Shown: positions 53,945 through 55,098 of the stretch, in pieces
How positions within the stretch are numbered: the stretch's first letter is position 1
How the letters are laid out: each line of letters starts with the position of its first letter
Sequence record: PV295200.1
DNA length: 64,000 nucleotides
DNA from: Escherichia phage vB_Eco_BCPEco_001
Strand: one strand, 5' to 3'
The notes under the pieces: model-generated
Database searches by the model: none
Told to the model about the DNA's origin: nothing
The model's input: only the letters and a program-made list of their open reading frames with translations
Made by a program: the position numbers and the translations under genes

Positions 53945-54399
53945 TGGAATTTAAAGACTTTTCAACGGGTCTTTATGTAGCAGCTAAGTTTTCAGAATTA
54001 ACACTTGATGCGCTGGAAGAACTTCAGCGCTCTTTACGTGTTCCTAATCCAGTTCCTAGAGAAAAAATTCATTCGACCATATGTTATTCAAGAGTAAATG
54101 TTCCGTATGTTCCATCAAGCGGAAGTTTTGAAGTAGCTTCTTCTGGACATTTAGAAGTGTGGAAAACACAAGATGGATCGACTCTTGTACTTGTGCTAGA
54201 TTCTGAATATCTGCGCTGTCGACACATGTATGCGCGGGCACTAGGTGCTACACACGATTTTGATGATTACACACCGCATATAACATTGTCTTATAATGTT
54301 GGGCCCTTATCATTTAGCGGTGATGTACAAATTCCGGTCGTATTAGATCGTGAATACAAAGAGCCTCTTAAACTCGATTGGGCAGATGATTTAAAATAA
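53941..54399 (+). CDS. 57B: conserved hypothetical protein gp57B
   Basis: 152 aa, size identical to T4 57B, downstream of 57A. Confidence 0.75.
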
Positions 54400-54411
54400 T
54401 TTCACAAAGTT

Positions 54412-54441
54412 GTTTACATACTGATGAGGTAGTGATACTAT
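54412..54441 (+). promoter_or_regulatory. early promoter within stem-loop cassette (first ip gene)
   Basis: GTTTAC, 18-bp spacer, TACTAT; inverted repeat GAGGTA...TACCTC encloses the -10. Confidence 0.65.
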
Positions 54442-54472
54442 TACCTCATCAAAATTAATTAGGAAAATAAAA

Positions 54473-54730
54473 ATGAAAACTTTCAAAGAGTTTGCTACAA
54501 AAACTACTATCACTGAATCTTCCCACGGTATGGAAGTAAAGCTTGGAATGGCTTTAGCTGAAGCTGAGCGTCTTTTCTCTCGTATTAAAGAACTTGCTGC
54601 TGCGGTCGATCCTTCATCTTTTAAAGGAGACCAAACTAAAGTTAAAGCACTTTTAGCATTATGCTCCGATGCAGGAGAAATTGCTAAAAATGGTTCTAAG
54701 ATGAAGAAACGATTAGAAGATTTAAAATAA
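54473..54730 (+). CDS. internal protein (Ip) candidate with capsid targeting sequence
   Basis: N-terminus MKTFKEFATK resembles T4 CTS MKTYQEFIAE; small basic protein with own early promoter, in ipI locus position. Confidence 0.7.
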   Translation: MKTFKEFATKTTITESSHGMEVKLGMALAEAERLFSRIKELAAAVDPSSFKGDQTKVKALLALCSDAGEIAKNGSKMKKRLEDLK

Positions 54731-54732
54731 TT

Positions 54733-54762
54733 TCACAAAGTTGTTTACATAGGGTTTTAGTT
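54733..54762 (+). promoter_or_regulatory. early promoter within stem-loop cassette (second ip gene)
   Basis: GTTTAC, 18-bp spacer, TACTAT; inverted repeat ATAGGG...CCCTAT. Confidence 0.65.
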
Positions 54763-54806
54763 GTGATACTATTACCCTATCAAAACAAAACCAAATGGAA
54801 ATCAAA

Positions 54807-55040
54807 ATGAAAACTTTCAAAGAGTTTATCGCTGAAACTGCTGATGTAAAAGTTGAGTTTATTTACACTGGCAAGAAAGATAAAATGGGTGAAATGCCTC
54901 ATGGAGTTCTTCGTGATGCATTAGATAATTTCGGTCAACTCGCCGCAGAAGATTACGGTGATAAAATTGTTGTTACTGGTCCTGCTGCAGTTATTGAAAA
55001 ATGGGCAGCAGAAAATAAATCAATTTTTCGTAAAAAATAA
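54807..55040 (+). CDS. internal protein (Ip) candidate with capsid targeting sequence
   Basis: Start taken at ATG 54807 giving MKTFKEFIAE (near-exact CTS); own early promoter. Confidence 0.7.
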   Translation: MKTFKEFIAETADVKVEFIYTGKKDKMGEMPHGVLRDALDNFGQLAAEDYGDKIVVTGPAAVIEKWAAENKSIFRKK

Positions 55041-55070
55041 GTTTACTTTTAGATGGGGTAGTGATACTAT
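55041..55070 (+). promoter_or_regulatory. early promoter within stem-loop cassette (small membrane ORF)
   Basis: GTTTAC, 18-bp spacer, TACTAT; inverted repeat GGGGTA...TACCC. Confidence 0.65.
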
Positions 55071-55098
55071 TACCCTATCAACTATTGAGGAGAATAAA

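Follow-up and report, generated by a model that had tools for sequence, protein, structure and literature searches.

Introduction

The closest described counterparts of the locus reported here are the internal protein (IP) genes of phage T4 and its relatives. Of these, Ip1, Ip2 and Ip3 inhibit three different GmrSD type IV restriction enzymes, one each (Silas et al. 2025, PMC12373910): IPI* of T4 acts on the GmrSD enzyme of E. coli CT596, and IPII and IPIII act on those of ECOR21 and ECOR17 (PMC12373910). In IPIII, the first 10 residues are enough to direct the protein to the head. Within this leader, positions 4 and 7 serve targeting, positions 8 and 10 serve processing, and the gp21 protease cleaves after L/I-x-E (PMC9026906). 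According to Arbiol et al. 2010 (PMC2839356), the known IP variants number more than 30, and the "PeSL-like sequences" that Repoila et al. (1994) noticed at both variable IP loci are analogues, not homologues, of the promoter early stem-loops (PeSLs). Here we analysed a 64,000-nt stretch of Escherichia phage vB_Eco_BCPEco_001 (PV295200.1; hereafter the window), the DNA of a T4-like Tequatrovirus genome. It contains an IP locus with two genes, ip5 and an ip6-family gene, interspersed with cassettes that combine a putative early promoter with an inverted repeat. A preliminary description of the window, made from the letters alone, had drawn attention to this locus.

Results

Two open reading frames (ORFs), ORF1 and ORF2, fill the interval from 57B to the trna.4 homologue, which is the ipI slot of T4. 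The preliminary description had stated that two small genes follow 57B where T4 has ipI, and the T4 gene order bore it out. The exact ORF1 sequence is a member of the UniRef cluster 'Ip5 ... Q38630_BPT6' and shares 92-99% identity with Ip5 of T2 and RB70. ORF2 shares 97% identity with entries labelled internal (core) protein and 75% with proteins that bear the name Ip6. Two families of internal head or virion proteins, PHROGs 3499 and 8111, match ORF1 and ORF2 end to end (E ~1e-50). Judged by these matches, ORF1 is Ip5 and ORF2 is a member of the Ip6 family, and we are confident that the window holds, at the ipI position, the internal-protein locus of a T6-like Tequatrovirus with the known genes ip5 and ip6. 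Among 50,697 phage records, 494 contain mature Ip5 and 230 contain mature Ip6. Positions 54300-55300 are 100% identical to Salmonella phage vB_Sen_BCPSen_003, and at least 80% of this segment is present in 156 phage records. An in-frame ATG lies four codons 5′ of ip6 (MEIK-MKTF..., 54795-54806); it overlaps the GGAA ribosome-binding site and lacks a ribosome-binding site of its own. The 81-aa form of the protein that starts there is annotated in some database entries and would bury the leader.

ORF1 opens with MKTFKEFATK and ORF2 with MKTFKEFIAE, both beginning MKTFKEF. When the six reading frames of the window were scanned with a loose leader motif, these two ORF starts gave the only matches. 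The leader-coding 21-mer ATGAAAACTTTCAAAGAGTTT, which makes up the first 21 coding nucleotides of both genes, occurs exactly twice in the window compared with 0.04 copies expected. The proposed likeness of both starts to the T4 capsid-targeting leader was borne out, as both carry an aromatic residue at position 4 and Phe at position 7, in keeping with the targeting residues. The sequence MKTYQEFIAE, cited as the T4 capsid-targeting sequence, is indeed that of IPII and IPIII but not of IPI, which begins MKTFKEFTSTTTPVSTITE (MKTFKEFTST). Ip6 retains F4, F7, I8 and E10, the last two within the gp21 motif I8-A-E10, and is therefore predicted to be cut after Glu10, leaving 67 aa with a pI of 6.5. 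Ip5 has a longer, IPI-type leader ending in ITE15, with the gp21 motif I13-T-E15 corresponding to I17-T-E19 of IPI; a predicted cut after Glu15 would leave 70 aa with a pI of 9.2. Applied to T4 IPI, the L/I-x-E rule returned the published 76-residue IPI* (PMC3012670). Both genes combine the leader, an L/I-x-E motif, a position at an ip locus and membership of a named family, the sequence features of leader-bearing T-even internal proteins.

Beyond the leader the proteins diverge entirely. Alignments of Ip5 with Ip6, and of each with T4 IPI and IPIII, were limited to the first 11-26 residues, and BLAST found no link among Ip5, Ip6 and T4 IPI-III once the first 12 residues had been removed. The alignment to IPI, IPII, IPIII and other Ip families that had been recommended as a check gave leader-only similarity to the T4 proteins and matched the Ip5 and Ip6 families. 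The structural model of Ip6 is a compact beta-alpha-beta-beta-alpha-beta domain (pLDDT 81.6), that of Ip5 a helical hairpin (pLDDT 72). A Foldseek search of a viral structure set returned Ip6 relatives only, and the solved structure of T4 IPI* was not among the top 50 Foldseek matches in the PDB.

The three cassettes of the locus (Table 1) share the hexamers GTTTAC and TACTAT at a spacing of 18 nt, with a TG just 5′ of the -10 box (GTGATACTAT). The near-identical early promoter sequences described before each of the two genes are present as stated; a third copy follows, with its -35 box directly 3′ of the ip6 stop codon, and is predicted to drive the trna.4 homologue. All three occurrences in the window of the composite GTTTAC-N14-GTGATACTATTACC fall at the ip locus, compared with none expected (100 shuffles). 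A promoter scan based on a sigma-70 rule scored cassettes 1 and 2 at 9/12 with the TG flagged; cassette 3 was not listed. The -10 box lies inside an inverted repeat in all three cassettes, as had been reported for the first two, with arms of 10 bp in cassette 1, 7 bp in cassette 2 and 9 bp including one G-T pair in cassette 3, and the folding z-scores are -3.5, -3.8 and -2.9, respectively. Each promoter is embedded in a direct repeat of about 70 bp (54384-54454, 54715-54785 and 55013-55083). The described repetition of gene end plus promoter, partial in the third copy, amounts to 86% and 66% identity. The repeat takes in the final codons of 57B (...DDLK*) and ORF1 (...EDLK*), and the 5′ parts of cassettes 1 and 2 are identical. 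Repeats of this kind, about 70 bp long, placed 5′ and 3′ of ip ORFs and carrying an early promoter with an overlapping inverted repeat, are reportedly what Repoila and colleagues defined at the IP loci in 1994.

In 51 unique related cassettes the stem sequences vary while the repeat around the -10 box recurs. Folding z-scores calculated for each cassette had a median of -3.2, and 61% were below -2. They replaced a fixed-register count (pairing of position -k with k+1 around the -10 box) that had given only moderate enrichment in the same 51 cassettes because registers differ between cassette types.

To describe the polymorphism of the locus, the regions downstream of 57B were compared in 36 IMG/VR loci encoding this gene. 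The number of leader-bearing ORFs per locus ranges from zero to three or more, and these ORFs cluster into at least 16 mutually unrelated families sharing the leader only (19 with T4 IPI-III). One locus (L005; 57B 99-100% identical) carries ip5 and ip6 as the window does. In another (L036; IMG/VR UViG_2974787500, 4400-4590), 57B is 100% identical and joined directly to cassette 2 and ip6, with cassette 2 as the sole spacer between the two genes. Relative to the window, this allele lacks precisely one repeat unit, the 331-bp unit with ip5. L035 (4400-4900; 57B 99% identical) has a single, unrelated 102-aa Ip in the locus. In T4, the spacer between 57B and ipI matches cassette 1 exactly, and the one between ipI and trna.4 is a hybrid that combines the 5′ part of cassette 2 with the 3′ part of cassette 3. 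In L018 and L032, some cassettes are mismatched, their left and right arms being of different types. Alleles differing by whole cassette units were observed, the elements bounding insertions, deletions or replacements as they do in PeSLs, and these natural variants fit cassette recombination.

Across the IMG/VR loci, 28 of 34 leader-bearing genes use GGAA-type ribosome-binding sites, the trna.4 family GGAG. The idea that ip ribosome-binding sites avoid the RegB cleavage motif GGAG (3/34 leader-bearing versus 32/165 other ORFs), so that early ip mRNA might stay translatable up to the time of head assembly, was dropped because this weak contrast was unconvincing and the striking GGAG cases come from one family, trna.4. 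In L006 and L011 (4666), L022 (4672) and L037 (4789), an 11-bp repeat lets the promoter spacer ATCTCCATTTG pair with CAAATGGAGAT. The latter spans the trna.4-like gene's ribosome-binding site, which would be hidden in read-through but not in local-promoter transcripts.

Table 1. Genes and cassettes in and around the ip locus of the window
Feature	Position	Strand	Evidence and details
dNMP kinase	52950-53714	+	
57A	53714-53944	+	
57B, Acb1 anti-CBASS family, conserved left border of the locus	53941-54399	+	Pfam PF23474 Acb1, E 2.7e-60; synteny with T4 and T6 57B
Cassette 1	54384-54472	+	-35 GTTTAC 54412-54417; -10 TACTAT 54436-54441; arms 54422-54431 / 54442-54451; ribosome-binding site AGGAAA 54461-54466
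ip5 (ORF1), 85 aa, starts MKTFKEFATKTTITE	54473-54730	+	UniRef exact sequence; phrog_3499 at 1.2e-49; T6 annotation
Cassette 2	54715-54806	+	-35 54743-54748; -10 54767-54772; arms 54749-54755 / 54774-54780; ribosome-binding site GGAA 54797-54800
ip6-family gene (ORF2), 77 aa, starts MKTFKEFIAETADV	54807-55040	+	phrog_8111 at 8.2e-52; T6 Ip6
Cassette 3, partial copy	55013-55098	+	-35 55041-55046; -10 55065-55070; arms 55052-55060 / 55071-55079; ribosome-binding site GAGGAG
trna.4 homologue, 61-aa predicted membrane protein, conserved right border	55099-55284	+	phrog_1692 at 1.2e-33; T4/T6 synteny
trna.3 and trna.2 homologues	3′ of trna.4 homologue	+	
tRNA cluster	starts 56070	+	

The gene directly 5′ of the injected-protein locus, 57B, is itself a known anti-defence gene by its Acb1 match, and its final 16 nt lie within the repeat. 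Further upstream, a late-promoter consensus (TATAAATA) is found at 53351 on the same strand. An Rfam scan of 53600-58200 returned tRNAs only and no other RNA family. Between a run of seven tRNA genes (56070-56641) and tRNA-Arg (57352) lies an ORF of 221 aa (56683-57348), in the slot where T4 and T6 carry segB, a GIY-YIG homing endonuclease gene. Early-promoter-like elements (GTTTAC, 18 nt, TACTAT or TATTAT) also precede small ORFs of the e.8/e.7 region at 57906-57950 and 58243-58300; in the element at 58243 an inverted repeat (GGCTCAT / ATGAGCC) overlaps the -10 box. In the closest database record (PV368562.1), all genes of the region, including ip5, ip6, 57A, 57B and lysozyme, are labelled 'hypothetical protein'.

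The second ip locus, which lies between e and denV and houses ipIII and ipII in T4, is empty in the window, as the lysozyme gene e (61587-62081) is followed by a single cassette (62084-62140; GTTTAC at 62085, TAGTAT, arms AATTGTGA / TCACAGTT) and then by denV (62141-62557). In T6, e is followed by regB.

Discussion

The ip locus of the window is a rediscovery of an arrangement that is already known (Repoila et al. 1994, via PMC2839356; T6 annotation). It carries little weight as a discovery, as T6 is annotated alike and hundreds of sequenced Tequatroviruses carry the arrangement. The names Ip5 and Ip6 are said to date from 1994.

By their leaders, Ip5 and Ip6 would follow the route of the T4 internal proteins. 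An N-terminal capsid-targeting propeptide would dock each protein onto the prohead scaffolding core, gp21 would remove it at the L/I-x-E motif (after ITE15 in Ip5, after IAE10 in Ip6), and the products of about 7.5 kDa would be packed and injected together with the DNA. By analogy with T4 Ip1-3, each protein most likely blocks one host nuclease attacking DNA with glucosylated hydroxymethylcytosine, or another first-response defence. The earlier designation of both as candidate anti-defence effectors matches the evidence, the role itself being a reasonable analogy with Ip1-3. At the level of the locus, each gene would be under its own early promoter, and the cassettes of about 70 bp together with the conserved leader-coding sequence would provide portable homology. 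Recombination between cassettes could then add, delete or swap whole ip modules and leave neighbouring genes undisturbed, with junctions expected within GATTTAAAATAATTTCACAAAGTTGTTTACATA. We think it improbable that, jointly, Ip5 and Ip6 neutralise defences other than the GmrSD enzymes assayed so far and the inverted repeat centred on the -10 box, a conserved geometry, is a structure-specific recombination site and not just shared homology. If both were true, ip loci would represent an integron-like cassette system for injected effectors.

Several observations weigh against the main picture of targeted effectors in exchangeable cassettes. Neither mature protein resembles a known function: Pfam gave no match for Ip5 or Ip6, PDB sequence searches with both returned nothing useful, and Foldseek found only generic small alpha/beta matches of the ferredoxin-like or ACT-like type in the PDB (best E 0.047). 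In an exhaustive HMMER search of 1.84 billion representatives, mature Ip6 reached T4-like phages only, the hits being two relatives from phages and a spurious match to an NHL-repeat protein. Homology of mature Ip5 or Ip6 to the GmrSD inhibitors IPI*, IPII* and IPIII* was not found, as the alignments end at the leader. When ip4-10 were assayed against eight active GmrSD variants, no reproducible inhibition was seen (PMC12373910). Furthermore, the GmrSD enzymes of ECOR17 and ECOR21 restrict T2 and T6 (PMC12373910) even though T2 carries Ip5 and T6 carries both Ip5 and Ip6, so these two enzymes are not the targets. As for the cassettes, a quarter to two fifths of the related ones lack a significant inverted repeat, depending on the z-score cutoff. 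None of the three stems of the locus is followed by a T-run, and a terminator scan found no terminator-like sites, so a terminator role is unsupported by the sequence.

An alternative is that Ip5 and Ip6 are packaged but have a mostly general role, as DNA-associated filler or as core proteins that neutralise charge, with no specific anti-defence target. The basic pI of mature Ip5, a property shared with IPI*, IPII* and IPIII*, the simple helical hairpin of its model and the lack of an inhibitory partner among the eight GmrSD variants would all suit such a role. Mature Ip6, however, is near neutral and has a compact alpha/beta fold, and all three T4 internal proteins are specific inhibitors. 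Moreover, unrelated families turn over rapidly at the locus, which suggests that hosts impose diversifying selection and speaks against a generic structural role. We therefore regard general filler proteins as unlikely and favour specific anti-defence effectors. Far less probable still, and in our view hardly credible, is that the pair arose by simple tandem duplication of a single ip gene followed by divergence, instead of being independently acquired modules. The 21 identical leader-coding nucleotides and the repetition of the flanks at a spacing of 331-334 bp might suggest duplication, but the proteins share nothing past residue 11, their folds differ (helical hairpin versus beta-alpha-beta-beta-alpha-beta) and each gene is found without the other in other phages. 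Even the leader identity appears to be secondary, as the ip6 leader of T6 reads MKTYQEFIAE and the identity seen here results from four clustered substitutions.

More serious competition comes from a different view of the inverted repeats, namely that they are chiefly RNA elements which attenuate read-through or stabilise the upstream 3′ end and so insulate the modules, a role that has been proposed for PeSLs, their link to recombination being a by-product of homology. Stem-loops of PeSLs from RB49/phi1 terminated transcription in reporter assays (PMC2839356). Folded as RNA, the stems of the window comprise up to 13 pairs, with G-U pairs counted, pairing is kept while stem sequences differ, and in some relatives a longer repeat covers the ribosome-binding site of the next gene. 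In addition, a transcript started at any of the promoters would lack the 5′ arm, so the hairpin would form in read-through RNA only. On the other hand, crossovers map in or beside the cassettes, and the missing T-runs and terminator-like sites count against this view as well. The late-promoter consensus upstream of the locus also speaks against it, strong terminators being ill-suited to proteins made at the time of head assembly; as proteins destined for proheads are needed late, weak hairpins might let late transcripts from 53351 pass. On balance, we hold a predominant RNA role to be possible but not probable, and prefer modules that are exchanged by recombination between cassettes.

At the two known ip loci, ip5 and ip6 are the only ip genes both here and in T6, so single and double knock-outs would offer a clean route to the host defence that they counter. 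After the 2025 GmrSD screen, in which they gave no reproducible inhibition, Ip5 and Ip6 are injected-protein candidates of practical value.

The modular cassettes shuffling injected proteins that the preliminary description had likened to those of other T4-type phages are supported in so far as alleles differ by cassette units, but the elements are not PeSLs in the strict sense. Like the PeSLs of RB49/phi1, PST and nt-1 (Arbiol 2010; Comeau 2014), they consist of an early promoter, a stem-loop and a ribosome-binding site, are repeated between small variable genes and are tied to insertions, deletions and replacements. In PeSLs, the stem-loop, often of the polyG/polyC type, lies upstream of the promoter (just upstream according to the PST/T4 paper) and acts as a terminator. 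In the elements of the window, by contrast, the arms enclose the -10 box, the promoters are of the T4 early type, and the stems are weaker, AT-rich and free of a T-run.

T4 ipI occupies the same slot between 57B and trna.4, has the same cassette on its 57B side and encodes the IPI-like leader that recurs in Ip5 (MKTFKEF...T(I)TE). It differs in being a single gene whose mature part is unrelated to Ip5 or Ip6. The leaders of T4 IPII and IPIII differ from that of Ip6 at 2 of 10 positions; Ip6 keeps residues 7, 8 and 10 and has, in place of Tyr4, the Phe that IPI also carries there. Both T4 genes belong to the other ip locus (e to denV) and their mature parts are unrelated.

The closest relative is T6 (MH550421), in which 57B, Ip5 ("replaces ipI"), Ip6 and Trna.4 are annotated in the same order and with the same three cassettes, and which is about 99% identical in nucleotide sequence to positions 54380-55110 (~730 bp). 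Besides a few single-base changes in the stems, T6 differs by the four clustered substitutions in ip6 codons 4-9 (54816-54830 of the window), which change MKTYQEFIAE to MKTFKEFIAE here. Three of these four copy the ip5 leader, so the segment looks like a short gene-conversion tract between the leaders of the two genes.

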